Source: an uncultured Candidatus Saccharibacteria bacterium
GTDB lineage: Bacteria; Patescibacteriota; Minisyncoccia; Phycocordibacterales; UBA5272
NCBI GenBank assembly: GCA_964391935.1
Contig: CAYMOA010000002.1
Span: 995-64,994 of the forward strand
Reading direction: 5' to 3'
Length of the DNA: 64,000 nucleotides
The notes under the pieces are model-generated. The model was not told the DNA's origin. It searched no databases and saw only the letters and a program-made list of their open reading frames with translations. Positions 3,004 to 53,510 of this stretch are shown here, piece after piece (within the stretch, counting starts at the first letter, position 1; each line of letters starts with the position of its first letter). A program made the translations under genes and the position numbers.

Positions 3004-3020
3004 TTACCCGAGTTTAACAT

Positions 3021-27139: not shown

Positions 27140-27166
27140 ATATAAAATTATATCAACAAAAACTCA

Positions 27167-27268
27167 TTTTGCCGAACTTAGCATTTTGTATCACCTCTTG
27201 TAAAAGAAAAAACCCTTGATTTACAAGGACTATTTCAGGTACGGAAGGCCATATACAATGTTCGGCAA
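27167..27268. repeat. attC-like imperfect-palindromic intergenic element E2 (102 bp)
   Basis: ttttgccgaacttagcattttgtatcacc…ccttgatttacaagg…ggtacggaaggccatatacaatgttcggcaa. Ends 1 nt before the stop codon of the adjacent gene. Confidence 0.7.
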
Positions 27269-27269
27269 T

Positions 27270-28316
27270 CTATTCTGAAGGAAAATCTTGTACATATTTC
27301 TCATTAACCTTATTAGACATAGCCATCATTATTTCTCTACTAAATTCTCTTGACTCCCCTTTAGACTTCATTTGTTTTCTAAAAGATAAAATGGCCTCTT
27401 TGAAACTTCCATATTTTTCAACTATCAATCTTAGTACACTCCAAGCTAGAGCATTTTGTTGCCTCTCCGTCAGAGCTTTATAATCTTCCTCCATTTCAAG
27501 TGCTGATTCTACAATATAGGCTAACATTGATTCTTCAAAAACTTCGTCTGTGACTGGCTGTTCATATTTTAATAAAAAATTACATTTTTCACTTGGTTTG
27601 TTTAATAAAGCAGTCGCAGCAGAAAAAACTTGGGCCCCCATTGACTTAAAATATTCACTCAATCTACCGTGCAGAACTCCATAAGGTGCACCGATAGTAA
27701 TGGAGGCCTTAGGAGCAAGACTAGCAAAGTATTTATGTTTAGTTAGTTCTTCTGTAAAGTTCTGTGCAACAAAAATATCCCTCTCTCTTTGGGCTTCTAC
27801 AATATCAACACAAGTTTTTTCCCACATATCTAGTAAATACTCATAACTATCACTTCTAAATCTATCAAATAAAATCATTCTCGCCCATCTTTGTCTACTT
27901 AAAGCTTGGTCTACTTTATAAGTCCCAGCTACCTTATCTCTTGCTTCACTACATACAATTAGTGGTTGGTATTCTGGACTTTCTTTTACATACTCTCTTA
28001 AGGCAGTCGCCAAACCTTCAACAAATTCATTTCTAATTCTTGGGAATTTTACATCTTTTCCAAGAACATAATCTTGAATGTCAGATAAATCTTCATCTCT
28101 AGCACGAACAAGTTCTAGTAAAATAATTTCTGGTTTATCTTTAAGAGAAAGTAAATTATTTACCGCGTTTATTCCATCTTGTGTTGTGCCGTGAAGTAAG
28201 CGAAGACTAACAAAGTTAACCGACTCCAAATTACTCATTCCTTTGCTTCTCAAAGATTCCACTAAAGAATTATTTTCTATTTTATTTTCACTTTGTTTTC
28301 TAAATTCAATACTCAT
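27270..28316 (-). CDS. Hypothetical protein (cassette gene)
   Basis: 348 aa ORF, no recognisable motif. Confidence 0.5.
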   Translation of the reverse strand: MSIEFRKQSENKIENNSLVESLRSKGMSNLESVNFVSLRLLHGTTQDGINAVNNLLSLKDKPEIILLELVRARDEDLSDIQDYVLGKDVKFPRIRNEFVEGLATALREYVKESPEYQPLIVCSEARDKVAGTYKVDQALSRQRWARMILFDRFRSDSYEYLLDMWEKTCVDIVEAQRERDIFVAQNFTEELTKHKYFASLAPKASITIGAPYGVLHGRLSEYFKSMGAQVFSAATALLNKPSEKCNFLLKYEQPVTDEVFEESMLAYIVESALEMEEDYKALTERQQNALAWSVLRLIVEKYGSFKEAILSFRKQMKSKGESREFSREIMMAMSNKVNEKYVQDFPSE

Positions 28317-28345
28317 AATAAATAAAGTATATCAGTAAAAATAAC

Positions 28346-28451
28346 TTTGCCGAACTTACGCGTTTGTATCACTTCTTGTAAAAGAAAAAACCCTTAATTT
28401 ATAAGAGTTTTTTCGTTAGCGGAAGACCATATACAATGTTCGGCAAAGTAT
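28346..28451. repeat. attC-like imperfect-palindromic intergenic element E3
   Basis: tttgccgaacttacgcgtttgtatcac…cccttaatttataag…gcggaagaccatatacaatgttcggcaaagtat. Confidence 0.7.
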
Positions 28452-28484
28452 CCAGGAAGAAACCCTATCAACTTAGAAAGAAAA

Positions 28485-30191: not shown

Positions 30192-30285
30192 GTGTTTTGT
30201 ATCACCACTTATTAAAGAAAATACCCTTATTAAATAAGGGTATTTTCTTTGGCGGAAGACTATATACAACGTTCGGCAGAGTATT
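30192..30285. repeat. attC-like intergenic element E4 (left arm diverged)
   Basis: …gtgttttgtatcacc…aatacccttattaaataagggtattttctttggcggaagactatatacaacgttcggcagagtatt. Perfect 10-bp hairpin plus T-run. Confidence 0.65.
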
Positions 30286-31042: not shown

Positions 31043-31113
31043 CAAAAAATACCCTTATTAAATAAGGATATTTTTCTTTGCGGAAGACTATATGCAATGT
31101 TCGGCAAAGTATT
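31043..31113. repeat. attC-like intergenic element E5 (right arm plus hairpin only)
   Basis: aaaaatacccttattaaataaggatatttttctttgcggaagactatatgcaatgttcggcaaagtatt. Confidence 0.6.
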
Positions 31114-33045: not shown

Positions 33046-33342
33046 CTATTTTCTTTTAAGTTTATATACCTTAATAATCTCTTTCTGCATTTCTTCCAAT
33101 CTATTTTTGTTTGTTTCTTTATGCAAACAATGTGCCAAATGACTTTCTAACATTTCATCTTCTAGACCAGAAATCGCACTTTTAATTGCAGAAGTTTGTG
33201 TGATGATGTCTATACAATACTTATCATCTAGTATCATCTTTTCAACTCCATTTAACTGCCCGGCAATTCGTTTGAGGCGAGTTAGTATTTTTTTGTTATC
33301 TTTGTTTATACCGTGCATAAAATGAGCCCTTACCTGCAACAC
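33046..33342 (-). CDS. csoR: CsoR/RcnR-family metal-sensing transcriptional repressor
   Basis: 98 aa. LTRLKRIAGQLNGVEKM… with C (YCID) and H-x3-C (HLAHC) in the positions of the CsoR Cys/His/Cys Cu(I) ligand set. Confidence 0.75.
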   Translation of the reverse strand: MLQVRAHFMHGINKDNKKILTRLKRIAGQLNGVEKMILDDKYCIDIITQTSAIKSAISGLEDEMLESHLAHCLHKETNKNRLEEMQKEIIKVYKLKRK

Positions 33343-33484: not shown

Positions 33485-33506
33485 TGTCAAGTAATACAAA
33501 AACACC

Positions 33507-33616
33507 TTTTTGCCGAACTTACGCGTTTTGTATCACCTCTTGTAACAAAAAATACCCTTATTAAATAAGGATATTCTGTTTTGCGGAAGACCATATACAA
33601 TGTTCGGCAGAGTATT
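33507..33616. repeat. attC-like imperfect-palindromic intergenic element E6
   Basis: ttttgccgaacttacgcgttttgtatcacc…aatacccttattaaataagg…gcggaagaccatatacaatgttcggcagagtatt. Confidence 0.7.
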
Positions 33617-33657
33617 TTAGAGGAGAAATTGATGTTTTATATAAATTAACTTGCTAA

Positions 33658-34443
33658 TCATATTTCTAAGCCTTTAACTTCTTCACTGTCTACAGAGTAA
33701 TCAAGTGAGAATGGAGTAAGGTCTCTCTCTTCTTTACTATTTGAAAAATAACGAATTGTAACTGCATAGGTATTTATGCAAACACTTTCTCTGAATAATT
33801 TAACCTTTTCGTCAGTTGTATCTGTTTCTAGGACACTTACGTCAATTTGTGGGATTTTTTTTTGAATATCAAAATAACCAGCTTCATTCAAACTAATTGA
33901 AAAGGTTTGATATATTTTCGGCCCTAATTCATATGTTTCAATGTATTTTTGTCGCCAAGCACCTCTCCAATATGATACATTTCCCCCGTTTTGAAATTTA
34001 TCCATTTCTTTAAAAGAATTTATACCTAGTTTAATGTCAGAATAAGGAATTATTGGGTTAAAATTTTTATCTCTTGTTGTGACTGAATATATTATAACTT
34101 TTCCATTAAGGTCTGTCTGAATGGCAACATAAAACAACTTATTTATGAAAATACAGTTCTTAACATTTTCAACTACATTTACAATTACTGGAGCACCTAG
34201 ATTTTCTATAAAAAAACCTATATCTATTCCAGGGCGAAGTTTATTTATTCTCTTTAGCCAGTATTTAGTTTTAAAAAATTTCTTGTAGACATATTCATAG
34301 GAAATACTGATTCCACCCAAACCTCCTAAAATGGTAAATACACCAAGAATTATAGCAAAAAAATAAAATGAATTTAAAAAATAAATTAAAGCTCCTAATT
34401 TGTAGTAGATTTTTATGAATATAAAAATGATAAAATCATACAT
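33658..34443 (-). CDS. Hypothetical membrane-anchored protein
   Basis: 261 aa with N-terminal hydrophobic segments. No motif recognised. Confidence 0.45.
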   Translation of the reverse strand: MYDFIIFIFIKIYYKLGALIYFLNSFYFFAIILGVFTILGGLGGISISYEYVYKKFFKTKYWLKRINKLRPGIDIGFFIENLGAPVIVNVVENVKNCIFINKLFYVAIQTDLNGKVIIYSVTTRDKNFNPIIPYSDIKLGINSFKEMDKFQNGGNVSYWRGAWRQKYIETYELGPKIYQTFSISLNEAGYFDIQKKIPQIDVSVLETDTTDEKVKLFRESVCINTYAVTIRYFSNSKEERDLTPFSLDYSVDSEEVKGLEI

Positions 34444-34446
34444 AAT

Positions 34447-34902
34447 TTAATTAAATTTACTTTCCCAAATTTTTACAACTTCCAGAGATTTTTCTTCCAG
34501 TTCTATATCTTGTATAATTTCAATAGGTTTCAAGAACATTTTATTAATTTGTTCTGTTGAGTAATCTCCACCATAGTAAAGATTGGAAAGTTTATCCTTG
34601 GAAAGTGCAAAAACTATTTTAGAAATTCCTGACCACATACAAGCATTTAGACACATTGCGCAAGTTTCCATACTTGCGTAAAGGGTTGCACCAGTTAAAT
34701 CTGAACTTTGTATGTTTTTACAAGCATTACGTATACATTGAAGTTCGCCGTGTGAAGTGGGGTCGTGTAATACATTTCCAATACTAATTCCTTCACCAAT
34801 TATTTTCCCGTCTTTTACAATTACAGTACCAGCAGGAAAACCACCCTCATTTACTGACTTTTGTGCTTGGTCTATTGCGATTTGTAAATAATTTTTTTCC
34901 AT
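34447..34902 (-). CDS. CMP/dCMP-type zinc deaminase (TadA/guanine deaminase-like)
   Basis: HGELQCIRNA (H-x-E) and TCAMCLNAC (C-x-x-C) are the zinc-binding motifs of the cytidine/deoxycytidylate deaminase fold. Confidence 0.75.
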   Translation of the reverse strand: MEKNYLQIAIDQAQKSVNEGGFPAGTVIVKDGKIIGEGISIGNVLHDPTSHGELQCIRNACKNIQSSDLTGATLYASMETCAMCLNACMWSGISKIVFALSKDKLSNLYYGGDYSTEQINKMFLKPIEIIQDIELEEKSLEVVKIWESKFN

Positions 34903-34932
34903 AACTATATTTTATCATTTTTACCTAACAAA

Positions 34933-34946
34933 AGGTATCTGGATAC
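34933..34946. promoter_or_regulatory. Perfect palindrome GGTATCTGGATACC (copy 1), putative operator
   Basis: 14-bp perfect inverted repeat, ~45 bp upstream of the ATG at 34989. Identical copies at 36618 and 38203. Confidence 0.5.
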
Positions 34947-34988
34947 CAAAGTTTTACAACTCCAACAACTTGAGATATATTTAAATAT

Positions 34989-35462
34989 ATGGAAACACAA
35001 ACACTTTCAGGAACAGAAAAAACCAAGTTTAACGCACTCACTCACGGCATTTTGAGTGAAAGTGTGTCTGACTATGAGAAAGCAGACTACGAGGCAATTT
35101 ACAAGGAATTTGAGGCAGATATAAAACCAAAAGGAATGACAGAAATAGCTCTTACTGAGATAGTAACTATGAGCTACATAAAGAGAAAAAGAATCAATAA
35201 GGCGGAAGTGGAACTTATCAAAGGAACACTAGACCCACTAAAGTTGAGAGAAGTTACGGAATACTCAAATCGTGAGAATCTGCCAGTAGACAAAATTGTA
35301 ATTCGCAATGAATATGTCAGTGGATACAAAACGGAACTAACAGCTGATGCAGTGCAAAGAATGGACTTGTATTCTAGATACGAAACATCTAATGATAACA
35401 GATTTTACAAAGCACTATTTATGATTCAAAAGTTAAGAGAAGGAAATAGTCCGACTGTATAA
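34989..35462 (+). CDS. Hypothetical protein
   Basis: 157 aa ORF preceded by the GGTATC…GATACC palindrome. Confidence 0.45.
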   Translation: METQTLSGTEKTKFNALTHGILSESVSDYEKADYEAIYKEFEADIKPKGMTEIALTEIVTMSYIKRKRINKAEVELIKGTLDPLKLREVTEYSNRENLPVDKIVIRNEYVSGYKTELTADAVQRMDLYSRYETSNDNRFYKALFMIQKLREGNSPTV

Positions 35463-35489
35463 TTCCGTTTCGCAAAATAACACTTTAAA

Positions 35490-36437
35490 TTACTTAGCTT
35501 TGTAAATCATCTCCCCATCAGACTCCACAGTCATAACTTTCCAGTTGTAATCTTCGTAAATTGCATTTGAATTTTCTTCACCAATATATTTAACAGTTAC
35601 ATCAAAATGAGTTTTAATCATAGCACCAAAACTATTTTGACTGTCTACACTTTGACTAACAACAAAGGTTTTACTATCAGTAGTTTTAGTTGATGGGTAA
35701 CCAAAATCTGCTGTGCTAGGAGCTTTCAAAGATTGTTTAATTAAGTTCTTTGAAATTCTCTCAACTGCTGTTTCTTTGCCACTTGCTAGAGGGTCAATTT
35801 TCTTAACAATTACTCCTGTAAATATATTTGAGTCTTTTAGAGCTTTAACATATTTCACTTCATAGTTTGGAGAATTATCTACCAGATTTAGTTGGTTCAA
35901 AATTATGTTTTTATCCTCAATACTATTTAAGTTGCTATGGTCATTTGCTGATGGTAAAAAGAAATCTATCACTGATTTAGATTTTAAATCATATGTCACA
36001 ATCATTTGTAATTTATCTTTTTCAAAAGTCATATCTGGGTTATCTCCATCATATGTATTCCCTTTGGGAATGTATTTAGATTTTGGCTGTCCAAATTTAG
36101 CCACTACATCATCAATACTTTTTCCCAATAAGTCAGAGATATCAAAAATAGCAGGAGTATTAACTTGTTCTTGTTGTCTTTTTTCTAAGTCTGCCACCTG
36201 TTGTCCTTTATCTTTTGCACTTGAGAAATTAGAAACAATTATTGAAAATAATATGAAGCCAATAAAGGTTGAAATTATCCAGTGTCTTCTAAACCAGTTT
36301 CTAATATCAGAATGACAGTGGGGACATTTAGTAGCACCAGCATCTACTTCTTTTTTACAGTAAGGACAAGTATTCAAACGTGTTTTTGTTTCCATATTTA
36401 TTATATTATTTAAATAGCTAGGACTTTTTCTAATCAA
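35490..36437 (-). CDS. Zinc-ribbon membrane-anchored protein (hypothetical)
   Basis: N-terminal CPYCKK…CPHCHS zinc ribbon, one TM helix, then an extracytoplasmic domain. 315 aa. Confidence 0.5.
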   Translation of the reverse strand: MIRKSPSYLNNIINMETKTRLNTCPYCKKEVDAGATKCPHCHSDIRNWFRRHWIISTFIGFILFSIIVSNFSSAKDKGQQVADLEKRQQEQVNTPAIFDISDLLGKSIDDVVAKFGQPKSKYIPKGNTYDGDNPDMTFEKDKLQMIVTYDLKSKSVIDFFLPSANDHSNLNSIEDKNIILNQLNLVDNSPNYEVKYVKALKDSNIFTGVIVKKIDPLASGKETAVERISKNLIKQSLKAPSTADFGYPSTKTTDSKTFVVSQSVDSQNSFGAMIKTHFDVTVKYIGEENSNAIYEDYNWKVMTVESDGEMIYKAK

Positions 36438-36617
36438 AAAGCCCCTAACCAGTTTCTAGTAGTTGTCTACTACATAACCGTTTCCAGTTATGGCACACGT
36501 AATGCAAAAGACCTGATTAGGGGTTCTTTATTCATTACGTGTGACTTGAAACCGTATCTTGTATTCCTACACGACCTTAGGTTTATGGATATATTCTAGC
36601 ATTTTTCTTTCAAAGTT

Positions 36618-36631
36618 GGTATCTGGATACC
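36618..36631. promoter_or_regulatory. Perfect palindrome GGTATCTGGATACC (copy 2) abutting the CD-NTase promoter
   Basis: Lies immediately upstream of -35. Confidence 0.5.
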
Positions 36632-36640
36632 AAAAAATAA

Positions 36641-36669
36641 TTGACACGATATGGTGCGGGGAGTAAAAT
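36641..36669 (+). promoter_or_regulatory. Sigma70-like promoter TTGACA-N17-TAAAAT for the CD-NTase gene
   Basis: Consensus -35, 17-nt spacer, A/T-rich -10, then 6 nt to the ATG at 36676. Confidence 0.5.
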
Positions 36670-36675
36670 TAAGGT

Positions 36676-37560
36676 ATGAGTATTTCAGAAGAGCAGATAA
36701 ATAATTGGGCAGAGCCGATTAGTGAGACAGAGGCGGAAAAATGTAGTAACGCAATTAGAATTATCGGGGAAACTATAAAGGAAAAGTTTGGTAATAGTGT
36801 TAAGATAATACACCAAGGTTCACATAAGAACCGAACTAATATCCGAGCAGATAGTGATGTTGATATTGCGGTTATTTATTTAGATGCGTATTTTTCTGAT
36901 ATCCAACACTTGGACAGTGTAAAACAAACGGATTACTGGAATAAACTGATTCCATCTGATTACAATTTTGCTCAGTTTAAGAATGATGTCCACCAAGTAT
37001 TAGTTGATAAATTTGGTTTGTTTGATGCGACAAGAAAAAATAAATGTGTAAGGGTCAATGGAAATTCCTATAGAGTCAATGCAGATGTTGTCCCAGCATT
37101 TGAATCAAAGCGATTCCATAATTCTGGCAATGTGTCACACACTGGAATTGGTTTTATAGCTGATAATACAGGAATACTAAAGCATAGTTTTCCTGAGCAT
37201 CATTATGAAAATGGTGTTAAGAAAAATGAAGAAACAGGGAACGCTTTTAAAGCGGTAGTTAGAATTTTAAAAAATTTGAGAAATGAGATGGAGGAAAAAA
37301 ACATAATTCCAAAGGGTTCCATTTCTTCATTTTTTCTAGAGAACTTAGCTTACAATGTTCCAAACAACTTCTTTCAGAATAAAACATACAAAGAAGATGT
37401 CCTCTCTGTAATGGGAAAAATTTGGGCAGATATGAGGGATGTAAATACTGGAAATAATTACACAGAAATTAGTCATTTGGCTTTCTTATTTGGTGATTCT
37501 AGTAGAACCACAAAACAAGCTGAAGATTTTATATTTAAAGCGTATAATTATTTGAAATAA
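36676..37560 (+). CDS. cGAS/DncV-like nucleotidyltransferase (CD-NTase, SMODS domain)
   Basis: QGSHKNRTNIRADSDVDIAV gives GS-x11-DxD, and a third acidic residue sits in VNADVVPAF. 294 aa. The architecture is typical of SMODS. Confidence 0.7.
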   Translation: MSISEEQINNWAEPISETEAEKCSNAIRIIGETIKEKFGNSVKIIHQGSHKNRTNIRADSDVDIAVIYLDAYFSDIQHLDSVKQTDYWNKLIPSDYNFAQFKNDVHQVLVDKFGLFDATRKNKCVRVNGNSYRVNADVVPAFESKRFHNSGNVSHTGIGFIADNTGILKHSFPEHHYENGVKKNEETGNAFKAVVRILKNLRNEMEEKNIIPKGSISSFFLENLAYNVPNNFFQNKTYKEDVLSVMGKIWADMRDVNTGNNYTEISHLAFLFGDSSRTTKQAEDFIFKAYNYLK

Positions 37561-37562
37561 AT

Positions 37563-38093
37563 ATGATACAAGAACTAAAATTGGAACAAAAAGTTGATAT
37601 TTTAATTTCTGCAATTGAAGAAAGATATAATGTATTGCATAAAATTAGAGAAAGAGTTCAAAGTGTAGGTTTATGGGCAATAGGACTGTCTTTATCTTCT
37701 GGTGGTTGGTTGATACAAAGTGGATTATCACTAACACCGTCCCAAAAGTTTTTTTATATATCTGGTATTTTATTGGCAACTTATTTTTTGAGACAAAACT
37801 ATCTTGAAGATTTGAGAAAAGGCTTTAAAGCTCAGCAATTAGTTACTGCAAAATTAGAAAAAGCCCTTGGACTTTTTGAAATTGGAATGTTTGATAACGA
37901 GAAAGAATCTATTTTCCCAAAATCTTGGGAACAGGCAGGTCAAAAAAATGGCGGTGGTAATTTTTTCAAAACTACTTTTTTACTTCTATACCTCGCTGTT
38001 TCATTTATGGCTTTATCTATCTATTTTGCCAAAGCACCAAATGAGGTTAATGTTGTAAGTGATAATGTTTTAAAATTTGAGGCTACAAAGTAA
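37563..38093 (+). CDS. SLATT-like 2-3 TM putative CBASS effector
   Basis: 176 aa starting 3 nt after the CD-NTase stop. Helical N-terminus, TM helices VGLWAIGLSLSSGGWLIQ, FFYISGILLATYFL and TTFLLLYLAVSFMALSIYF. Confidence 0.5.
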   Translation: MIQELKLEQKVDILISAIEERYNVLHKIRERVQSVGLWAIGLSLSSGGWLIQSGLSLTPSQKFFYISGILLATYFLRQNYLEDLRKGFKAQQLVTAKLEKALGLFEIGMFDNEKESIFPKSWEQAGQKNGGGNFFKTTFLLLYLAVSFMALSIYFAKAPNEVNVVSDNVLKFEATK

Positions 38094-38135
38094 AAATAAT
38101 CAGTTAATTTATGGGAGAACTCAGGATGTTTTGAA

Positions 38136-38948
38136 ATGATATACTTCAAACACAATCAAATGCTACACCATATGAAAGAGAAAATAAGTGAAATGACTAT
38201 TGGGTATCTGGATACCCTTGTAAAAAATAGAGATGAATGGATAAATTTTTCTGAATTTGAAGATGAATATATTGACTTGTTTAATGTATTAGAAAAAATT
38301 GGCATAAAACTAGAATTAAAAATGGTTGAAAATCCATACGAAGTTTTAATTGGAGTAAAAAAAGAAATGGAAAGAAATGTTTCTCCTTACAAAAATCGCA
38401 ACCAGATATTAGATACTAAAGTTGAAAAGGACGATTTAGAAGAAAGAGAGTTTAAAGCGGTTTCAAAAAAATTTAATCAAAAAGGTATTACAATGAATTT
38501 AATAAACAACTTAGTTTCCAAGTCACCAATCAATATAAATATTTTTGAAGTTAAAAAACTTACAGATTTACAGAAACGAAAAACAATAAGCTATTTGAGG
38601 GTAAACAAACTTACAAAAAATCAGACACCAAAACCAAGCTTGAATGGTGAGATAACTTTAACCGTAGATATAAAAAATATGTTAGTACAAAGAAATGATA
38701 ATGGAGCTGAATACAAATTTGTTAGCAAATCTGGAAAGTCTAAAAGGTTTGATTACTTCTGTAAAATTTTAAAAGATAAAAAAGTCCCAGCAGATAAATT
38801 TAAAAAATCCTTTCAACTTATAAGTGGTGAGATTAAAAAAATCAACGAAGCAATCTGTGAAAAACTGCATCTGACTGAATATATTATTCTAAATAAAATG
38901 AATTCTGGTTACGAAATAAATCCTGTATATAAAATCACTACGATATAG
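38136..38948 (+). CDS. Hypothetical protein (possible third gene of the CBASS-like unit; start uncertain)
   Basis: 270 aa ORF. Palindrome copy 3 lies inside its 5' end, so the true start may be M at ~38319. Confidence 0.4.
   Translation: MIYFKHNQMLHHMKEKISEMTIGYLDTLVKNRDEWINFSEFEDEYIDLFNVLEKIGIKLELKMVENPYEVLIGVKKEMERNVSPYKNRNQILDTKVEKDDLEEREFKAVSKKFNQKGITMNLINNLVSKSPININIFEVKKLTDLQKRKTISYLRVNKLTKNQTPKPSLNGEITLTVDIKNMLVQRNDNGAEYKFVSKSGKSKRFDYFCKILKDKKVPADKFKKSFQLISGEIKKINEAICEKLHLTEYIILNKMNSGYEINPVYKITTI
38203..38216. promoter_or_regulatory. Perfect palindrome GGTATCTGGATACC (copy 3)
   Basis: Identical 14-mer within the annotated 5' end of ORF 38136. Confidence 0.45.
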
Positions 38949-38981
38949 TTGTAAAGCTAAAATATATTTATTTTTATAAAA

Positions 38982-39012
38982 ATACCCTTATCTTATAAGG
39001 GTATTTTATTTA
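38982..39012 (+). terminator. Rho-independent terminator (tacccttat…ataagggta + T-run)
   Basis: AAAAATACCCTTATCTTATAAGGGTATTTTATTT. Same hairpin family as the hairpins inside the E elements. Confidence 0.55.
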
Positions 39013-39596
39013 TAACTTAACTATAGCTTAACTTAAAATCTGATTGCATTTTCGGTATACCACCGTATGTGAAATTATCAACTAAAGCAATCCAAGACCT
39101 CAAAGAAACCCTCAAAAAAGAATACGGGTCTTTTTTTGGATTGTCAGATATTGAGTTAGAAGAAATTGGACTTTTCCTTTTAACTGCAGTTGCAGAGGAT
39201 TTGAAATTAAGAGCACAAAAAACTTGTTAATTCCGAGTTGTTTATTTATGTAAACAGTTCGGAGTTAAGAAATTAACTCCATAACATTGTTATGGAAACC
39301 ATCTAAAGCAGGGAACTAGATGTAAAACTACCTCTGAAAGTTATTGTTAAGGTGCTAATGGGAAAGGCAAGAAAATGAGTTCTCACCCCTCTCACTTGCC
39401 CACTTGTTTAGCATCGTAGCAATCTCACTGTGAAGGTTGATGAGTCACGGAAGTAAGCACTCCGAACAATGACTACTATGTAGCTCTAACAGAAACCATA
39501 ACTCCATACAAGCCATTTTTGGCTAGCACTTTTATTGCTTAGAACAAAAGCAAAAGGGGTGAAGTGCAATTATTAACAAAATAATAAAAACAAATT

Positions 39597-39918: not shown

Positions 39919-40026
39919 TGCTACACCATAGAAAATTACAAGAATAACAATTATTTTTGTAAGTAAAAACGAGACAATGACCTCTATGGTGTAGCAACTA
40001 AAAAGCGTCGTTGTCTCATTTTTACT
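39919..40026. repeat. Nested inverted repeats immediately upstream of the serine recombinase gene (candidate att/recombination site)
   Basis: Outer 21-bp IR aagtaaaaacgagacaatgac / gtcgttgtctcatttttactt (2 mismatches). Inner IR tgctacaccatagaaa / tctatggtgtagca. Confidence 0.45.
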
Positions 40027-40029
40027 TAT

Positions 40030-41727
40030 ATGGATAAAATAAAAAGCAAATTTAACACATTATTGATTGATGACTATTACCGAAAGTCATCTAGAGCAGA
40101 AGATAAGCAAGCTTTGTCACTTGATGGACAAGAGGAGGAAGCCAAAAAAGCTAGAGAAATGTATGGGATTCCTAAAGCCCTTAATACATACAAAGAATCC
40201 CGTTCAGCTAAATACGCAGGAAAAAGAGTTCTTTATTCTGAAATGAAAATGAGAATTGTTAAGGGAGAAATAAATTGTATTTTTGCTTGGCACTTAAATC
40301 GTATTGCAAGAAATATGACAGAGGCAGGTGAGCTAATTGATTGGGTAAGTGATGGCAAGCTTATTGTAATAACTTTTTATGACAATCAAATAGAGGTTTA
40401 CGATGAAGATTCTGACACTTCTGTAATGGCACAAAAATTTGGTGCAAATAAACAATACTCTCACACCTTAAGTAAAGATGTTAAAAGAGGTCAAAGAACT
40501 AAAGCAAAACTTAAAGGATTACCCCAAGGTTTAGCAACTATTGGTTATAAAAATTCAAAGCAAGGCGAAAAGGGAGAGCGTTGGTGGTATGTAGATGAAG
40601 AAAGACTTTGGAAGATTAAAAAACTTTTTGAACTTTTTTTAACAGGTAGATATTCAATTGGTAAACTCCATAAATACGCAACAGAAGAACTGAAACTTAC
40701 TACCCCGTCACATAAAACTTTAGGAGGGAAACTGGTTACCAGAGAGTATCTAGGAAAGATTTTACATAATCCAATCTTTGCTGGCTTCTTTTTTGTTCAA
40801 GGTGAAAGATACACCCTTGATAAAAATCTTCCCAGAATAATTACAGTAAGCGAACACAATAAAATCAAACTCATTCTCACAAGTCGTTGTAACCCTAAAG
40901 TCCAAAAACACGAAGCAGTATTTTCGGGATTTATCAAATCTGATACAGGAGATTTTATTGGACAGGATATAAAACGCCAACTTTGGTGTGATTGCCGACA
41001 TAAATTTGCCTATCGTGACAAAAAGAACTGCCCTAAATGTAACAGAAAGATTGATGAGCTAGATAATCCTGAATATTTTATTCAAAATTATTATTACAAT
41101 AATCGCAAAAAGAAAGCAGGACTTGAATATAAATCAATAACAGAGGAAAGGATTACCAATGAGATAATTGAATATGTAGAAGAGAATTTAAAACTTCCCT
41201 TTTCTTTATTGGAATGGACTAAAAAACATATATACGAACTCAAAGACCAAGAAGTTTCTGATAGCCTCAACATAGAAAAAGATAAGGGACTCAGAAAGAC
41301 TGATTATGAAAATAAAAAGAAAAATGCCACAAAGCTATTTATTGAAGGAAAAATAAATGAGGAAGAGAGAAAGCAATTTTTACTTGATGTTGAAAATGAA
41401 TACACTGACTTAAATGAAAACAATACTCCTAAAATAAACTGGGTTGAAAAATTAGAAGAAATTATTGATGTAACAGTTTCAATAAAAAATGTACTGACAA
41501 ATGGTGACTTTGAAGCCAAAAGAGTTCTTTTAACTAGATTAGGTTCGCACTGGACTTGGGACGACAAAAACCTCTTAATTTACAACGCTAAATCAGTAAA
41601 CACTTTCTCAGATGGAATAAAAACCGTAAAACCAATTTTATCAAAGTTCGGCAACAGAAAAGCCCTTGTAGAACAAGAGCTTTCTGACGAAAACAGTGAA
41701 CTTTGTATCACCCTGCGGGCCATGTGA
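40030..41727 (+). CDS. Large serine recombinase (resolvase/invertase N-domain + recombinase domain + zinc ribbon)
   Basis: Catalytic-Ser region YYRKSSRAEDKQ, motif WHLNRIARN (R-x-x-R), C-terminal CDCRH…CPKCNRK zinc ribbon. 565 aa. Confidence 0.8.
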   Translation: MDKIKSKFNTLLIDDYYRKSSRAEDKQALSLDGQEEEAKKAREMYGIPKALNTYKESRSAKYAGKRVLYSEMKMRIVKGEINCIFAWHLNRIARNMTEAGELIDWVSDGKLIVITFYDNQIEVYDEDSDTSVMAQKFGANKQYSHTLSKDVKRGQRTKAKLKGLPQGLATIGYKNSKQGEKGERWWYVDEERLWKIKKLFELFLTGRYSIGKLHKYATEELKLTTPSHKTLGGKLVTREYLGKILHNPIFAGFFFVQGERYTLDKNLPRIITVSEHNKIKLILTSRCNPKVQKHEAVFSGFIKSDTGDFIGQDIKRQLWCDCRHKFAYRDKKNCPKCNRKIDELDNPEYFIQNYYYNNRKKKAGLEYKSITEERITNEIIEYVEENLKLPFSLLEWTKKHIYELKDQEVSDSLNIEKDKGLRKTDYENKKKNATKLFIEGKINEEERKQFLLDVENEYTDLNENNTPKINWVEKLEEIIDVTVSIKNVLTNGDFEAKRVLLTRLGSHWTWDDKNLLIYNAKSVNTFSDGIKTVKPILSKFGNRKALVEQELSDENSELCITLRAM

Positions 41728-41977
41728 GTTAAGTACCCCAGCTTCCTTACCCCACAAGGCTTTTCTGGGAATAATTTTAGCTTGAAAATTAGACAGGTGA
41801 GTCACTATGAAATGCCAACAAATGCCAAAAAACTAGGAGTACTATTGACGTGCTTAGATCAGTATTTCCTTAATTTAATCCTTATAAAATAAAGGTTTTA
41901 TAGGAAACAAGAATTTAATACCTTAGAAGCGTTTTGGCATTTAAATTACTATTGACATTGTTAATTTATTATTGTAT

Positions 41978-42644: not shown

Positions 42645-43262
42645 CTATATATATTTTAACAAATTATTGTCGTTAATTTTCCTAAACATTGCCTCCTCAC
42701 TTACTCTGTACCTTATCGCTAGTTCCTTCACATTTTTTATCGTCTTCAGATCTGTTTTAAGTATATCGGTTGGCATCAAAAGATCTGCGGCAAAAATATT
42801 TGCATCTATTTCTATGTCTGATTTACCGCTACCAAGTATATGTGTAGTATTAAAAATCAAATGTCCTAGTTCATGGGCAATACTGAATCTTTGGTGACAG
42901 TATGGTTTCGCAGGGTTATAGCCCAACGTGTAAATTTCCTCGTTTAAAAGTTTTGTTTTTACTATTTGTGCAGAAATTCTACTCGTAAAGTCTGGATTTG
43001 GTAAAATATCTAGAATGTACAAATCTGCATCATTTAAAAACTCTTGAATCTTTAACAGGTCAACTGGGATGACACCTATCTTCGATAGCTTCAATAATCT
43101 TTTAGCCAAATTTTTTGCACCTTTTTTATGGATGTTTGAAACTTTAAATTCCACTTCGTCTGCAAACCTAGTCTTCTTTGGTTGAAAGTGATCGAAACTG
43201 TCTTCTATCACTTCTTCACTATTTTCTTTTTCTCTTTGCATGATTTTCTTTTGCCATTTCAA
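42645..43262 (-). CDS. ImmA/IrrE-family zinc metallopeptidase
   Basis: HELGHLIFN (HExxH), directly downstream of and overlapping an XRE HTH gene. Confidence 0.7.
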   Translation of the reverse strand: MKWQKKIMQREKENSEEVIEDSFDHFQPKKTRFADEVEFKVSNIHKKGAKNLAKRLLKLSKIGVIPVDLLKIQEFLNDADLYILDILPNPDFTSRISAQIVKTKLLNEEIYTLGYNPAKPYCHQRFSIAHELGHLIFNTTHILGSGKSDIEIDANIFAADLLMPTDILKTDLKTIKNVKELAIRYRVSEEAMFRKINDNNLLKYI

Positions 43263-43566
43263 TGAATCTCATAATAGCTTCTTTATCCTCTGTACCTAGG
43301 TTAGCATCGGCTCTTAGTGCATACTCCACTTGTATAGATTCATATTTCTCTCCTAAAAAATATTTGATGTCCTTTTTTAAAAACTTAGCGATCTTTTCCA
43401 AGTTTTCCACAGTTATCTTCCTCTCTCCCTTCTCTATTAAAGATATAGCAGAAGCTGACTCAAATTCTAGTTCCTTAGCTAAAAGAGTCTGAGACATGCC
43501 TGCGTCCTCTCGAGCCGTCTTTATCCTATCTCCTATGTACTGTGCTTTGGTTATATCATTTTGCAT
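43219..43566 (-). CDS. XRE-family helix-turn-helix transcriptional regulator
   Basis: MSQTLLAKELEFESASAISLIEKGERKITVENLEKIAKFL is an HTH_3 domain. Confidence 0.75.
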   Translation of the reverse strand: MQNDITKAQYIGDRIKTAREDAGMSQTLLAKELEFESASAISLIEKGERKITVENLEKIAKFLKKDIKYFLGEKYESIQVEYALRADANLGTEDKEAIMRFIEMAKENHAKRKRK

Positions 43567-48835: not shown

Positions 48836-48850
48836 TATAGACGACATTTG

Positions 48851-48935
48851 GACACCTGAGACATTCCTTAACTTTATCTAGGCACTTGCGTCATCAATAT
48901 GTGTATGAAAATAGAGTTAAATACAAATCAAGCAC
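48851..48935. repeat. Direct repeat copy A (~75 bp) containing a remnant recombinase 5' end
   Basis: gacacctgagacattccttaactttatctaggcacttgcgtcatcaatatgtgtatgaaaata… is ~88% identical to 53425-53510. Encodes MKIELNTNQ… then stop, versus MKIQTNKQP in the intact gene. Confidence 0.6.
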
Positions 48936-49004: not shown

Positions 49005-51317
49005 CTATAGAATCTTATTGCCTGAAATAGTTACCCATTCCTGGTTTTTAAAGATCATAATTCCACCAAATAATTTCTGAGTTTTGCGGTTTTTGTTGTC
49101 ACTTAGAATATATTTTTGCAAAGCTTCGTTTTTGGCTTTAGTGTAAGTATCTTCATCTCTGTCTTCTTCGTCCTTAGTTTCAAAGATTCCAATTCTGCCA
49201 TCAGAAAATTCTACAAGATAATCTGGATAAAAAGTATAGACCTCACTTTTATATTCATATTTAATCCCAAAATAATCTCTTCGCATTTCGCCATTTTTGT
49301 ACCACCAATTTATGTTGTTTAGACTCTCTAAATGTTTCTCAAAGTTCCTTTCAGGATTAGATCTATTCTTCGATAAAAAACAAGGTTGGAGTAGGTGCTT
49401 AGAATAATTTTTAATTTCCTCATCAACGTCCTTATTAAAATAATCTGATTCAGCAATTTCAAAATTTTCAATTTTGTGCTCTGTGTCTTCTTTTGCCTTT
49501 TTCTCTCTAACTAGAGAATACTTTTCAACTGCTTTTAGGAAGATGGGTTTAATGTTATTTTTATTCATTAAAAGAAAGGCCTGAGAACTCAAGGCACCAT
49601 TTTGTACTACTTCCTCGCCAAACAGGTCTCTACAGGCCAAAAACCATGCCACATTCATCGCAGAGACCGATCTGACAATGTTGGTAAAGGGTGCCATCAT
49701 ACTTTTAAATAGTGATTTAGAAATGAACTCAATTTGCCTGTCATTTACATTTAAAGATTGCACTACTCCGTCGTCATCTTCAAACACATTTTTGTAATTA
49801 TCTACTTCTGTCACTTCAAGTGCCAAATCTTTGATTACTTCATGTGAAATATTTACCACATCGAATTGCCAACCCTTATCCCCGTGAACATTACTTTTGA
49901 TATTATTTAGAATTTTGATATTGTTTTTAAAATCTCCAACTTTTAAATCGGACGAAGTTATAAACTGATCAAGTAAAACTTTTCGGAAATCTGCTTTAAT
50001 ATCTTGATAGTCTGCACGTTCTTTGTAGAAGGACGTTAACTTAATTGGTTTGTATTTGTCACTTCTCTTTGATGGTTGGTCACCCAGAATTTTAGGACTG
50101 TAATTTTCAATATCAAAGCTAGCACTGCTGGTATTGGTATATACATAGGCTTTGTTTAATTTGACATCTTCATAATACATTTGCTCAGGCATTCTTAAAA
50201 TTCTACCTAATACTTGAATATTAAAGATTTCGCTTTCACTTTCTCTAAATTTAAGTAATATCTGTGCACGAGGACAATCCCATCCTGTATCGATAGCTTG
50301 TTTGAAAATTAAATATTCTTGAGGTGCATTGTTTTTAGAAATATTTTCTAAATTTCTATCTTCCTCTTTTTCTTCATCTAACCAAATAGATAGTCTTTCA
50401 TCCCCCAATTTTATCCCTTTATTTTTTTCTAAATATTGGAGCACTGTATTTTTCACAACCTCACCATTTTGACTATTGGGCAGTTGAATTAGTAAGAGTG
50501 GATTGACATCAATATTATTGTTTTTGTAAACCTGTGCAAGCTCATCTCTTTTAGCAATTGCCGTACTCAAAATCGCTTCGTCACTATCCTCAGTCTTCTT
50601 AAAGTTAAAATCAAAATTTACCAGTATTTGATCCTTTATCATTTCCTCGTCAATCACATCTTGGGGATTTATTTTTTCAATCCAACCCTTACCCTCAATT
50701 ATATCATCGGCAGATAATTTAATGATAGGAGTAGCTGACACTTCTATAGTTACAGTAGGACTGATAAGATCAATAATTTCTTTGCCTCTATCAGCACTCG
50801 TGTGACTATGAGATTCATCAATTATTAGTATTATTTTTCTATCTCTTCCTATTGTATTGTTTAAAATCTCTCGGAAGTTTGTGTGATCACCATCTTTCAT
50901 TACTATATTTTTCCACTCTTGAGTTTTACCATCCTTTGCTCTAATTTTTTCCCAGTTAACTACCATCACAGAATCTTTTAATAACTCATATTGAGAGGTA
51001 CCAAAAACCGTATCAATACTTTGAACTACAGGATACCCTGAAAATACATTTTCCAATGATCTCTTGCTTTGATTGTGTAAATCTCCTTTACCAATAGATA
51101 GCCAAATAAAGGTAAAATCTAATTTTCTATTCTCCTCCTTACTTTTATTCACCAAAGACTCAATAATACTAGCCATCATAATAGTTTTACCAGAACCAGT
51201 TGGGGCTTGTAATACAGCTGTCTTTTTGTCTCTCTTATCTGACTGTAAAAAACTGCTAACTTTTTCTGTTAAGTTTTTCACTGCTTTTTCTTGATAATTT
51301 TTAAGATTTATTTTCAT
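49005..51317 (-). CDS. Type III restriction enzyme Res subunit (SF2 helicase-like)
   Basis: Walker A LQAPTGSGKTIMMA, DExH LIIDESHSH. 770 aa, immediately downstream of the Mod gene. Confidence 0.8.
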   Translation of the reverse strand: MKINLKNYQEKAVKNLTEKVSSFLQSDKRDKKTAVLQAPTGSGKTIMMASIIESLVNKSKEENRKLDFTFIWLSIGKGDLHNQSKRSLENVFSGYPVVQSIDTVFGTSQYELLKDSVMVVNWEKIRAKDGKTQEWKNIVMKDGDHTNFREILNNTIGRDRKIILIIDESHSHTSADRGKEIIDLISPTVTIEVSATPIIKLSADDIIEGKGWIEKINPQDVIDEEMIKDQILVNFDFNFKKTEDSDEAILSTAIAKRDELAQVYKNNNIDVNPLLLIQLPNSQNGEVVKNTVLQYLEKNKGIKLGDERLSIWLDEEKEEDRNLENISKNNAPQEYLIFKQAIDTGWDCPRAQILLKFRESESEIFNIQVLGRILRMPEQMYYEDVKLNKAYVYTNTSSASFDIENYSPKILGDQPSKRSDKYKPIKLTSFYKERADYQDIKADFRKVLLDQFITSSDLKVGDFKNNIKILNNIKSNVHGDKGWQFDVVNISHEVIKDLALEVTEVDNYKNVFEDDDGVVQSLNVNDRQIEFISKSLFKSMMAPFTNIVRSVSAMNVAWFLACRDLFGEEVVQNGALSSQAFLLMNKNNIKPIFLKAVEKYSLVREKKAKEDTEHKIENFEIAESDYFNKDVDEEIKNYSKHLLQPCFLSKNRSNPERNFEKHLESLNNINWWYKNGEMRRDYFGIKYEYKSEVYTFYPDYLVEFSDGRIGIFETKDEEDRDEDTYTKAKNEALQKYILSDNKNRKTQKLFGGIMIFKNQEWVTISGNKIL

Positions 51318-51327
51318 GGATTTGTTT

Positions 51328-53157
51328 TTATTTATTGTTACTATTATTTTTTAATATTGTCTCGTATATTTCTAGAATCTTTTGAGGTATTTCTTCTATG
51401 TTTATACCTTTCCATTTTCTATAATCGTCAATAAAGTCATCCACATTTCTAAGCGAGAAAATATATGCACTTTTGTCTAAGTCATCTTGATTTTTAAGAT
51501 CAGCTCTCATATCGTCTAAATAACTATCATCTAAATCGTAATAAATGCCAATTGTATGTTTTATAGTTTTTCTATTTTCAACTTTTACTCCACTAAATAT
51601 TTTGTACATCAAAGTATCACCATCTTTAACTTCTTTTTCTAAATTAAATGCATTTTCTTTTAAACAGAGCATTTCTGTACAAGCTCGCATCAATCTCATT
51701 TTCATATTGTCGGTGTGTTTTGTACGATCAATGAAGTCTGTTTCCAAATATTTTAAATTTCCACCAAGCTCATCTTTTTCCATAATATTGGAAAGTCTTT
51801 TAAACGTTACCTCTTCACAGATTTTATGCTCACTTTTTTCATCGCCATTATTGGTCACTAAAATAAACTGACGATTTCCTTTATCTTCTTTATTGAGACT
51901 TAAAACAGCATGTGCAGTTGATCCAGAACCTGCGAAGAAATCCAAAACCGTAGAGCAATCATTAGAAACCCATTTTATTAATTGTTTTATAAGTCTGATA
52001 GGCTTTTTACCATTTTTAAATTCTACATCTCCTTCTTTTTCAACATTCATCATATCCGAGTAAAACCCTTTCCAAAGATCACCCCTTATTGAGCATCTTG
52101 CAAACTCACCACCGAAGTCATCAGACTTTTTTAACCCATCACTTAGAAATGCTAATTGTTGAATTTTTCCAGTACCTGTCTTAGTTAAAAAGTAACCCCT
52201 TATATTTACGACAGCCCCAATTTTTATTTTCTTTTTTTCCTGATCAGACAATGAGATATCACAATCCATAAGTCTGCAAATCTTATCTGCATATTTGTAA
52301 AATTCTTCTTTAAATTCTGGTATAAGACTGCATAGAGTCTCAATAGAATTGACCGAAAAACTTTTTACTTGTTTTAGTATTTTATACTTGTCAATAAATA
52401 CACTTAGGGTTGGAAGACTTAATATACTGCTAATATTTTTTAGATCGCCATCGTAAAAAAGATTATAGTGGGAGTCGTAATAATTAATTTTGTCATACAA
52501 TAAATTTTTAACAATTTTCTTATTTTTACTTTTTGAGAACATTAGAACATATTCATAATTCTTAACCACCGACCCATTTTGGGCCGACCTAACTTTCATT
52601 CCTTGTGTTTTTGTTAGTTCTACACCAATATTTGCTACAAACGAATTTATACCAAACACCTGATCACACAATAATTTTAATTCTGCTTGTTGATTGTTGT
52701 CTATACTCACAAATAATGTACCATTATCTGATAGTAAAGATTCAGCAAGTAATAATCTTTTCTCCATAAACGACAACCACTTACTATTTCTGAAACTATC
52801 TTCAGAGTCTACAAACTTATCGTTGTAAATAAAATCCTTGTTGCCAGTATTGTATGGTGGATCGATATAAATTACATCAATAGAATTTTTATGCGTATAA
52901 TTAAGAACAGAAAGTGCATGATAATTATCACCCTCAATTAAAATATTTGTGGGTTTATTTTTATCATTTATTATTTCTTTGAACTTCTTTCCTTCCTTAA
53001 CTTTAAGCACAGGAAATTTTGTGTTGCATTCCTCAACTACCTTTTCAGGCTTATCTTCCCAAACTAAACCGTATTTACTTTTTTGTTTAAGTTTTTTATT
53101 TTCTTCTTCTAATTCTAAAATTCTGTGAGTAAGATTTACATCTAAATTTGATGACAT
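51328..53157 (-). CDS. Type III restriction-modification Mod methyltransferase (beta-class)
   Basis: Motif IV VIYIDPPYNTG N-terminal to motif I LDFFAGSGSTAHAV. 609 aa. Confidence 0.8.
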   Translation of the reverse strand: MSSNLDVNLTHRILELEEENKKLKQKSKYGLVWEDKPEKVVEECNTKFPVLKVKEGKKFKEIINDKNKPTNILIEGDNYHALSVLNYTHKNSIDVIYIDPPYNTGNKDFIYNDKFVDSEDSFRNSKWLSFMEKRLLLAESLLSDNGTLFVSIDNNQQAELKLLCDQVFGINSFVANIGVELTKTQGMKVRSAQNGSVVKNYEYVLMFSKSKNKKIVKNLLYDKINYYDSHYNLFYDGDLKNISSILSLPTLSVFIDKYKILKQVKSFSVNSIETLCSLIPEFKEEFYKYADKICRLMDCDISLSDQEKKKIKIGAVVNIRGYFLTKTGTGKIQQLAFLSDGLKKSDDFGGEFARCSIRGDLWKGFYSDMMNVEKEGDVEFKNGKKPIRLIKQLIKWVSNDCSTVLDFFAGSGSTAHAVLSLNKEDKGNRQFILVTNNGDEKSEHKICEEVTFKRLSNIMEKDELGGNLKYLETDFIDRTKHTDNMKMRLMRACTEMLCLKENAFNLEKEVKDGDTLMYKIFSGVKVENRKTIKHTIGIYYDLDDSYLDDMRADLKNQDDLDKSAYIFSLRNVDDFIDDYRKWKGINIEEIPQKILEIYETILKNNSNNK

Positions 53158-53424: not shown

Positions 53425-53510
53425 GACACCTGAGACGCTCCTTGACTTATCTAGGCACTTGCGTCATCAATATAGGTGTATGAAAATACAAACAAATAAA
53501 CAACCAGAGA
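53425..53510. repeat. Direct repeat copy B (~75 bp) spanning the promoter and 5' end of the serine recombinase gene
   Basis: gacacctgagacgctccttgacttatctaggcacttgcgtcatcaatataggtgtatgaaaata… matches copy A at 48851. Confidence 0.6.

Follow-up and report, generated by a model that had tools for sequence, protein, structure and literature searches.

A short inverted repeat in the core of an integrative element from a candidate-phyla-radiation bacterium, conserved in related elements and possibly an operator

The window analysed here is a stretch of 64,000 nucleotides (nt) of contig CAYMOA010000002.1 with a G+C content of 33%. From ~34.9 kb to at least 54.8 kb it holds an integrated mobile element of a Paceibacterota-like bacterium of the candidate phyla radiation (CPR). 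Within this element a 14-bp inverted repeat, which we call PAL, occurs in three exact copies, S1, S2 and S3, among the genes of a conserved element core and of a cyclic-oligonucleotide-based antiphage signalling system (CBASS). The features around the copies are as follows.

34909-34917, minus strand: extended -10 box TGaTAAAAT of the deaminase gene, 16 nt from S1
34934-34947, plus strand: PAL copy S1, exact GGTATCTGGATACC (GGTATC-TG-GATACC), in the middle of the 86-bp divergent region between the ATG of the deaminase gene (34902, minus strand) and that of the 157-amino-acid (157-aa) protein gene (34989)
34989-35462, plus strand: gene for a 157-aa protein of an uncharacterised CPR family, between S1 and S2
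35490-36395, minus strand: Zn-ribbon membrane-protein gene with Pfam zinc-ribbon matches, part of the conserved core between S1 and S2; homologues of 75-76% identity in the related contigs L003 and L018
36458-36583, minus strand: LOOT RNA (Rfam RF03000; score 61.7 bits, gathering threshold 46.4), immediately upstream of the Zn-ribbon gene
36593-36601, minus strand: extended -10 box TGcTAGAAT of the LOOT RNA, 16 nt from S2; also in L003 and in L018, which has no PAL
36618-36631, plus strand: PAL copy S2, exact GGTATCTGGATACC, between the LOOT promoter (minus strand) and the CD-NTase promoter (plus strand)
36641-38093, plus strand: CBASS cargo with its own promoter, directly right of S2; CD-NTase gene (36676-37560) and 176-aa gene (37563-38093)
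38117-38130, plus strand: possible decayed PAL copy GAACTCAGGATGTT, 8/14 matches, 16 nt before the end of the X promoter box
38133-38174, plus strand: element X, in which an extended -10 box (TGaTATACT, 38137-38145) is followed by a short leader and by GCTACACCATATG, which ends in the start codon at 38172
38172-38948, plus strand: ORF258, an orphan cargo gene holding S3, in a frame that is open from 38136
38203-38216, plus strand: PAL copy S3, exact GGTATCTGGATACC, extending to GGGTATCTGGATACCC, in the 5' coding part of ORF258 (codons I-G-Y-L-D-T-L); none of the relatives has an equivalent copy
40030-41727: gene for an unusual 565-aa serine recombinase (Pfam Resolvase)

A sequence-only reading of this DNA had noticed three identical 14-mers and judged them to be far beyond chance. 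The count bears this out: GGTATCTGGATACC is present exactly three times against 0.16 copies expected, and none of 100 dinucleotide shuffles gave as many. The copies also lie where that reading had placed them, S1 ending 41 nt before the ATG at 34989, S2 standing beside the -35 box of the CD-NTase promoter and S3 falling within the open reading frame (ORF) that begins at 38136. The repeat had been called a perfect palindrome, which it is not, as its central TG reads CA on the opposite strand. PAL has a 6-2-6 layout, in which two 6-bp arms that match perfectly as an inverted repeat are separated by a 2-bp centre lacking symmetry, and its polarity is identical in all three copies. A search for GGTATC-N2-GATACC with up to two mismatches gave no fourth copy in the 64-kb window, the sole extra match being a weak, chance-level one at 14732, and there is none in the ~45 kb of the window outside the element.

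Apart from a promoter common to S1 and S2, the flanks of the three copies are unrelated. No longer repeat unit unites them: all copies share 14-18 bp, and S3 has only the repeat itself in common with the other two. Outside this element, the exact 14-mer has at least 120 matches in IMG/VR, all of them single, at about the chance rate and without related genes, and the pattern TTTGTATC-N2-GATACAAA has 18 matches there, one site each, without a 157-family gene or related genes. A repeat belonging to the end of an insertion sequence (IS) or miniature inverted-repeat transposable element (MITE), or to some other long dispersed repeat, had been named as the finding that would undo a regulatory interpretation. 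We looked for it and found neither a longer unit common to the copies nor more than single, chance-level matches elsewhere, and we therefore reject an IS or MITE terminus and a repeat of the repetitive-extragenic-palindrome type. The PAL motif was not found in the literature.

S1 and S2 each lie between two divergent promoters. On the plus strand, S1 is followed after 5 nt by TTTACA (34953-34958), a 17-nt spacer and TATATT (34976-34981), and then by the ATG at 34989, with a promoter match of 10/12. S2 is followed after 9 nt by TTGACA-17-TAAAAT (36641-36669) and then by the ATG at 36676; at 11/12 this is the best promoter match in the region, and together the two are among the three best matches in the 5.3 kb between 34.4 and 39.7 kb. 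On the minus strand, the box TGnTAnAAT (TGNTANAAT) is placed exactly 16 nt from both S1 and S2; its background frequency is 2.2e-4 per position per strand. The 34 nt to the left of S1 and S2 are identical in register at 20 of 34 positions (empirical P = 4.6e-4), and they resemble each other because both carry AAAAATGnTAnAATATA, the minus-strand extended -10 promoter 16 nt from the repeat. For a transcription start assumed to lie 7 nt downstream of the -10 box, PAL would span roughly positions -32 to -45 of these minus-strand promoters, in which a -35 box is missing. We also observed that the -10 boxes of the deaminase, 157-aa and CD-NTase genes (ATG 34902, 34989 and 36676) end 6-7 nt before the ATG, with no Shine-Dalgarno sequence, and from this spacing the three genes appear to be leaderless.

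Is the arrangement kept in relatives? The closest one, L003, is a 16.4-kb Joint Genome Institute contig that was reached through its 93%-identical recombinase; a search for the recombinase in IMG/VR gave no match. L003 carries PAL at 2041-2054, before its 157-aa gene, and at 3712-3725, with both 14-mers intact and in the same polarity. In a BLASTN comparison its positions 2041-3735 align with 34934-36641 of the window at 79.7% identity, the alignment beginning at the first base of S1 and ending ~10 nt past S2. To the left of S1, L003 has other genes (a P4-cII-like gene and a Beta_protein gene), and to the right of S2 it has no CBASS; what follows there is a TGaTATACT box, a short leader and GCTACACCATATG, which starts a 286-aa gene. 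In a 524-bp contig, L014, a gene for a 157-aa homologue has the same -35 box, and TGTATCCAGATACA lies 6 nt upstream of that box; the left flank is a third one, unrelated to the other two. The sequence left of S1 is different in each of the window, L003 and L014, and that right of S2 is not the same in the window as in L003.

A more distant element is found in L139 (Paceibacterota), whose 157-family protein is 44% identical and whose recombinase is only 37% identical to that of the window. Within 10.4 kb its sequence matches GTATC-N2-GATAC exactly at three places, where chance would give 0.01, and the flanks of these sites are not homologous. One site separates the 157-family gene from LOOT, another forms a 20-bp perfect palindrome between a 281-aa and a 60-aa gene, and the last lies in the coding sequence of the recombinase. 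In the variant TGTATC-NN-GATACA, found in L014 and L139, both outer bases have changed together. The centre varies among TG, CA and CG across the window, L003, L014 and L139; it is TG in every copy in the window and L003, and TG, CG and CG in L139. PAL is a real, non-random, conserved regulatory-type inverted repeat of the CPR element core. We find it to be a part of that core that coincides with the borders between core and cargo, the evidence for such border marking coming from two borders.

The repeat can be set against the genes that accompany it in the loci compared.

Window, L003 and L139: PAL, 157-family gene, LOOT and 565-type recombinase all present
L014 (524 bp): PAL and 157-family gene present; contig too short for LOOT and recombinase
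L018: Zn-ribbon protein 76% identical; PAL and 157-family gene absent; LOOT present; recombinase not on the 2.1-kb contig
L010: PAL and 157-family gene absent; LOOT and 565-type recombinase present
L009, L011 and L012: PAL, 157-family gene and LOOT absent; 565-type recombinase present (44-47% identical)
L149, L151 and L152: PAL and 157-family gene absent; LOOT present; no 565-type recombinase (other integrases)

PAL tracks the 157-aa family, as it occurs in 4/4 close relatives with the gene and is missing from 8/8 loci without it. LOOT is found without PAL in L018, L010, L149, L151 and L152. Recombinases of the 565-aa type at 44-47% identity come without PAL (L009-L012), and L139, at 37%, has it. 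Neither L003, with its two copies, nor L139, with its three, has a CD-NTase gene. Judged from these loci, PAL does not follow LOOT, the recombinase or CBASS. The sequence-only reading had proposed a shared dimeric regulator that co-controls CBASS and its neighbours; the part concerning a dimeric protein agrees with the protein-site-like features at the promoters, and the part concerning CBASS falls away with the CBASS-free L003 and L139. CBASS arrived beside S2 as cargo that has a promoter of its own, and any effect of PAL on it is therefore secondary. Moreover, because PAL belongs to the element core and CBASS was inserted beside it as cargo, a search upstream of homologous CBASS loci would miss PAL.

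From the sites, their promoter geometry, their conservation, the junctions and the co-occurrence, we infer that PAL, (G/T)GTATC-NN-GATAC(C/A), serves as operator for a DNA-binding protein that is symmetric and probably dimeric and is encoded by a family of integrative elements of CPR (Paceibacterota-like) bacteria, and we give this reading about an even chance. It is favoured because of the symmetry, the paired change of the outer bases, the free centre, the positions at promoters and the perfect conservation in an 80%-identical background. A paired outer-base change together with a variable centre is what would be predicted for a dimer with two contacted half-sites and an uncontacted spacer. 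A protein on PAL would occlude RNA polymerase at the leftward promoters (those of LOOT with the Zn-ribbon gene, and of the deaminase gene) and could modulate the rightward ones (those of the 157-aa gene and the CD-NTase operon). L018 keeps LOOT and its promoter, with the box TGaTAGAAT, in the absence of PAL, and PAL is therefore not needed for promoter activity. Negative control would be more likely than activation, since this relative keeps the LOOT promoter without PAL and since PAL overlaps the -35 region.

Several observations weigh against such an operator. S3 lies within a coding sequence, has no minus-strand promoter at the 16-nt offset, and the promoter-like boxes adjacent to it are weak. 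In L014 the minus-strand extended -10 box is 32 nt from the site, not 16, and in L139 one site is ~72 nt before LOOT, a second lies between two genes and a third is in the recombinase coding sequence. The distance from PAL to the plus-strand -35 box also varies (1, 4, 5, 6 and 9 nt). Every comparable copy of PAL is a homology breakpoint at its outer edge, which is not required of a plain operator; such breakpoints fit two views, namely the survival of those recombinants that keep promoter-operator units intact, or a real recombination site. The co-occurrence of PAL with the 157-aa family was counted over few lineages, which are not independent, and distant 157-family loci (29-39% identity) have no site with the N2 spacer. 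Finally, no Pfam, NCBIfam or PHROGs model matches the 157-aa family, and its structure model, compared with the PDB and BFVD by Foldseek, gave nothing below E = 0.3 and neither a helix-turn-helix nor another known DNA-binding fold.

The distant 157-family loci do have scattered GTATC...GATAC pairs, with spacers of 1, 4, 4 and 6 nt. At L144 2504-2517, ATTATC-AA-GATAAT stands 28 nt before the 157-family gene. At L143 711-724 and L146 4843-4856, a small ORF before the distant 157-family gene encodes the motif (I)TIEEYRxIL, whose codons form GTATC-N4-GATAC, and there the pairs are probably at least in part a by-product of the E-Y-R-x-I-L codons. The sites in L143, L146 and L144 may be related to PAL.

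Which protein could occupy the sites? By its co-occurrence with PAL, a protein of the 157-aa family would be the best candidate; as the binder, it would also regulate its own gene through S1. The family comprises 230 representatives at E < 0.001 in an exhaustive search, by which it was found, a word-indexed search having returned two fragments only; its GTDB matches are confined to CPR/Patescibacteria. Residues N15, H19, R68, R130 and Y131 are invariant. A structure predicted from a 50-sequence alignment (predicted local distance difference test score, pLDDT, of 85) shows helices with a long helical hairpin and a beta-hairpin; a model from three sequences reached a pLDDT of 43 and was not usable. 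The ORF at 34989-35462, one of two hypothetical genes suggested in the sequence-only reading to encode the regulator, thus gains from its co-occurrence with PAL across relatives, and the structure model matches no known DNA-binding fold; its role as the PAL factor is therefore a lead only. The other suggestion, the ORF at 38136-38948, is an orphan without a homologue and has S3 inside its own coding sequence.

Further along the element lie the following genes.

42645-43566: XRE/ImmA pair, with the XRE helix-turn-helix gene at 43219-43566, 5 kb away
from 44698: ParB-methylase genes
49005-53157, minus strand: type III restriction-modification (R-M) system
53459-54781: second large serine recombinase gene, judged to be of the serine type by 83% DNA identity to an annotated L003 gene

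We consider it unlikely that PAL is an operator for another factor, such as a global regulator of the host or some other protein that the element supplies in trans, with shared ancestry accounting for the co-occurrence of the 157-aa family. The absence of a recognisable DNA-binding fold in the 157-aa protein would fit such a factor, as would the presence of the XRE/ImmA pair in the window. The PAL loci may also represent one element clade in related hosts: a CsoR-like protein of the window (33046-33342) is 82% identical to one in L139, a Candidatus Paceibacterota genome, with the related element beside it. However, the XRE/ImmA module is missing from L003, where PAL is perfectly kept, and a host regulator is hard to reconcile with the lack of PAL in the ~45 kb outside the element. 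Among the element proteins, the 53-aa and 77-aa core families occur also in elements without PAL. Two proposed counterparts failed on comparison, the M78 peptidase of L015 having no real similarity to the window XRE, and the P4-cII-like protein of L003 none to a 221-aa protein of the window.

Somewhat less probable still is that PAL is a site-specific recombination or cassette-junction site, at which the element recombinase or the 157-aa protein inserts or exchanges cargo. The locus would then be an integron-like array of the form PAL-157 unit-...-PAL-CBASS-(decayed PAL)-X-PAL-ORF258, and loss of CBASS would leave a junction of ...AAAGTT-PAL joined to CTTGTAAAAAAT. This would account for the breaks in homology at the outer edge of every comparable copy and for the possible decayed PAL before X, and the 6-2-6 layout with an asymmetric centre, in uniform polarity in the window and L003, resembles a serine-recombinase crossover site. 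Two serine recombinase genes lie close by, the layout of the 157 and LOOT-Zn units is not the same in L139 as in the window, with each unit adjoining a PAL, and the invariant N15, H19, R68, R130 and Y131 of the 157-aa family are in keeping with such a role. On the other hand, the copies have 14-18 bp in common, whereas serine recombinases need ~26-50 bp, and the L139 centres are TG, CG and CG, although the partners of a serine recombinase must share the central dinucleotide. The distribution of PAL does not follow the recombinase phylogeny, the cargo genes have their own promoters, and the convergent 157/Zn-ribbon junction lacks the PAL copy that would be left behind by PAL-by-PAL insertion.

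The type III R-M system also speaks against such a site. It is bracketed by two direct ~65-bp copies (48850-48915 and 53427-53490), each comprising the promoter of the second serine recombinase gene with its initial codons, and L003 has a single copy and no R-M system. Here a second slot has taken up cargo at a duplicated target where PAL is absent, and cargo therefore enters without PAL. A search of 41728-41810, after the recombinase gene, for a tRNA or an obvious repeat as an attachment (att) site found neither. No tyrosine integron integrase was seen either: ten proteins from 34.4-43.6 kb were scanned against Pfam, the serine recombinase being the only recombinase among them, and the genes at 43.7-48.8 kb fall outside that scan. 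A wider version, in which PAL is the recognition site of the 157-aa family and this family is a new sequence-specific DNA protein that, besides repressing the LOOT and core promoters, would also define or catalyse cargo exchange, making the locus an integron-like platform for the capture of defence genes such as CBASS and the deaminase, strikes us as a long shot.

It is lower yet in probability that PAL has no binding function, being a piece of a duplicated promoter module or a microhomology kept by recombination between related elements. S1 and S2 do share an extended promoter-containing flank, and the mosaic junctions coincide with PAL. Such a remnant would not be expected to be 100% conserved in an 80%-identical background at two places, to change symmetrically in its arms in L014 and L139, to recur three times in the non-homologous flanks of L139 against 0.01 expected, or, as at S3, to be shared as the repeat alone. 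A nucleic-acid hairpin, be it an intrinsic terminator, an RNA element or a cruciform or single-stranded DNA hairpin for an HUH-type enzyme, is hardly credible: the inverted symmetry and the distant 157-family spacers of 1, 4, 4 and 6 nt, which a stem would tolerate better than a rigid dimer, would suit it, but the predicted single-stranded DNA hairpins are weak (-2.3 to -5.3 kcal/mol with 5-9 pairs; -2.3 to -4.3 for the window copies), there is no T-run and a terminator scan does not call the copies, S1 and S2 lie upstream of both divergent transcription starts and are therefore probably not transcribed, and no HUH or relaxase gene was found in the protein-family scans.

The cargo itself is varied. 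The CD-NTase gene matches the PADLOC cyclase model at 3.8e-88, and its 176-aa partner we take to be a putative membrane effector, from hydrophobic stretches read by eye. The CD-NTase protein, like other exact window proteins, occurs only in contigs identical to the window. In L003, CBASS is missing at S2, and the X promoter and the 286-aa gene come after PAL. In a local alignment, the X stretch of promoter and leader follows PAL directly in L003 and lies just before S3 in the window. The offset of GAACTCAGGATGTT to X equals that of the intact PAL in L003, and at least 8 matches have an empirical frequency of 0.008, so that its status as a decayed PAL copy is suggestive only. The frame open from 38136 has its likelier start at 38172, as in a public gene call of 258 aa, and codon usage shows 38172-38324 to be coding, with the signal running through S3. 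ORF258 has no homologue among 5.8 billion proteins; we considered it as a diverged member of the 286-aa family and rejected this, as the two are unrelated. To the left of S1, on the minus strand (33658-34902), there are genes for an ETEC_3214-domain protein (5.8e-30) and a cytidine/MafB19-like deaminase, which may be element cargo rather than host genes, in a position that holds variable cargo in related elements.

LOOT and a Zn-ribbon/UPF0547-like membrane-protein gene share a strand in the window and in a further seven loci, of which six are independent. LOOT is directly 5' of the Zn-ribbon gene in 7/8 loci examined, a 107-aa ORF standing between them in L152. Its coordinates are 3552-3677 in L003, ~838-965 in L018, 5540-5662 in L139, 5805-5937 in L149, 1882-2005 in L151 and 1498-1629 in L152. 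All LOOT-bearing loci are CPR integrative elements and adjoin serine or tyrosine recombinases. LOOT looks like a leader or co-transcribed RNA of the Zn-ribbon gene.

Other non-coding features of the region deserve mention. Between the 53-aa and 77-aa genes, ~365 nt of non-coding sequence (39231-39596), in a block 93% identical to L003, contain many internal inverted repeats without an Rfam match and are a candidate new structured RNA. The 11-mer GCTACACCATA is found at 38162-38172 and 39920-39930 on the plus strand and at 39985-39995 on the minus strand, in the same three places in L003, and at ~4896-4906 in L139. Its last bases are the start codon of the gene that follows the cargo slot, and it is also present as an inverted pair within a long hairpin just upstream of the start codon (40030) of the recombinase gene. 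The 11-mer may be a second regulatory element that is shared. A near-identical hairpin with a 13-bp stem, AAAATACCCTTAT-TAA-ATAAGGGTATTTT, follows four stop codons (30218-30250, 31046-31078, 33549-33581 and 38976-39008); the loop is CTT in the copy at 38976, and the right arm of the copy at 33549 is imperfect. Three of these copies belong to the flanking genome and the fourth, behind ORF258, to the element, and the hairpin looks like a shared two-way terminator. Near the CsoR-like gene, an intergenic unit of ~110 nt (TTGCCGAAC...terminator hairpin...CCATATACAATGTTCGGCA) is present in three copies (27140-27270, 28320-28480 and 33500-33620), with CGAAC/GTTCG boxes around the hairpin; it could be a regulatory site or a repeat, in a region that we guess to be concerned with metal homeostasis.

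To our knowledge, almost nothing is known of gene regulation or of mobile elements in CPR bacteria, none of which is easy to grow. The locus offers a testable module, with a 14-bp site, compact, apparently leaderless promoters, LOOT with its Zn-ribbon gene and a co-varying protein family, and it shows the entry points of defence cargo (CBASS, deaminase and type III R-M) in such elements. If the 157-aa protein does bind PAL, its family would gain a function and LOOT a handle; if PAL proved to be a recombination junction, it would represent a novel mode of cassette capture. As regards CBASS the outcome is negative, as the palindrome is not a CBASS regulator.

How does PAL compare with known systems? 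As in the attI/attC arrays of integrons, a symmetric site recurs where each successive accessory unit begins, next to a conserved platform. Unlike those arrays, PAL has no integron integrase, it measures 14 bp against the ~57-141 nt of attC with its R and L boxes, and the cassettes have promoters. With res site I, the hix/gix sites and the att sites of large serine integrases it shares half-sites around a 2-bp asymmetric centre, a uniform polarity in the window and recombinase genes nearby; it differs from them in being too short, in lacking conserved flank determinants, in the non-uniform L139 centre and in a distribution apart from the recombinase. The promoter-early stem-loop (PeSL) cassettes of T4-type phages flank variable ORFs and mediate modular shuffling. 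As with these, a promoter and a short inverted repeat start accessory units, and the homology of relatives breaks at the repeat; PeSLs, however, are longer and have a real stem-loop terminator, whereas PAL has 14-18 bp in common and a weak hairpin. We know of no circular intermediates of PAL units.

A similar half-site geometry is seen in a phage contig, L051 (IMGVR_UViG_3300017780_006678), where four CGGTATC-N2-GATACCG palindromes lie 46-50 bp apart at 5170-5330, three of them ~15-20 nt before a CTTGAC box, and the same half-site geometry is therefore used as an operator array elsewhere. This is an analogy found among chance matches, and L051 is unrelated to the PAL element: it is a phage of high GC content, its four sites stand in tandem within 150 bp, and the two have no genes in common. 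The operators of KorA and KorB are repeated at many promoters of the IncP plasmid RK2, and phage repressors likewise have repeated operators. PAL departs from these in the lack of a known DNA-binding fold in the protein that co-varies with it, in the intragenic position of one copy, in the coincidence of its copies with core/cargo borders, in its CPR host and in having the LOOT RNA among the controlled units. In common with the KorA/KorB and phage operators, PAL is short and element-specific, is conserved far above its surroundings, and lies at or near the -35 box of several promoters, including divergent ones and that of the presumed regulator's own gene.

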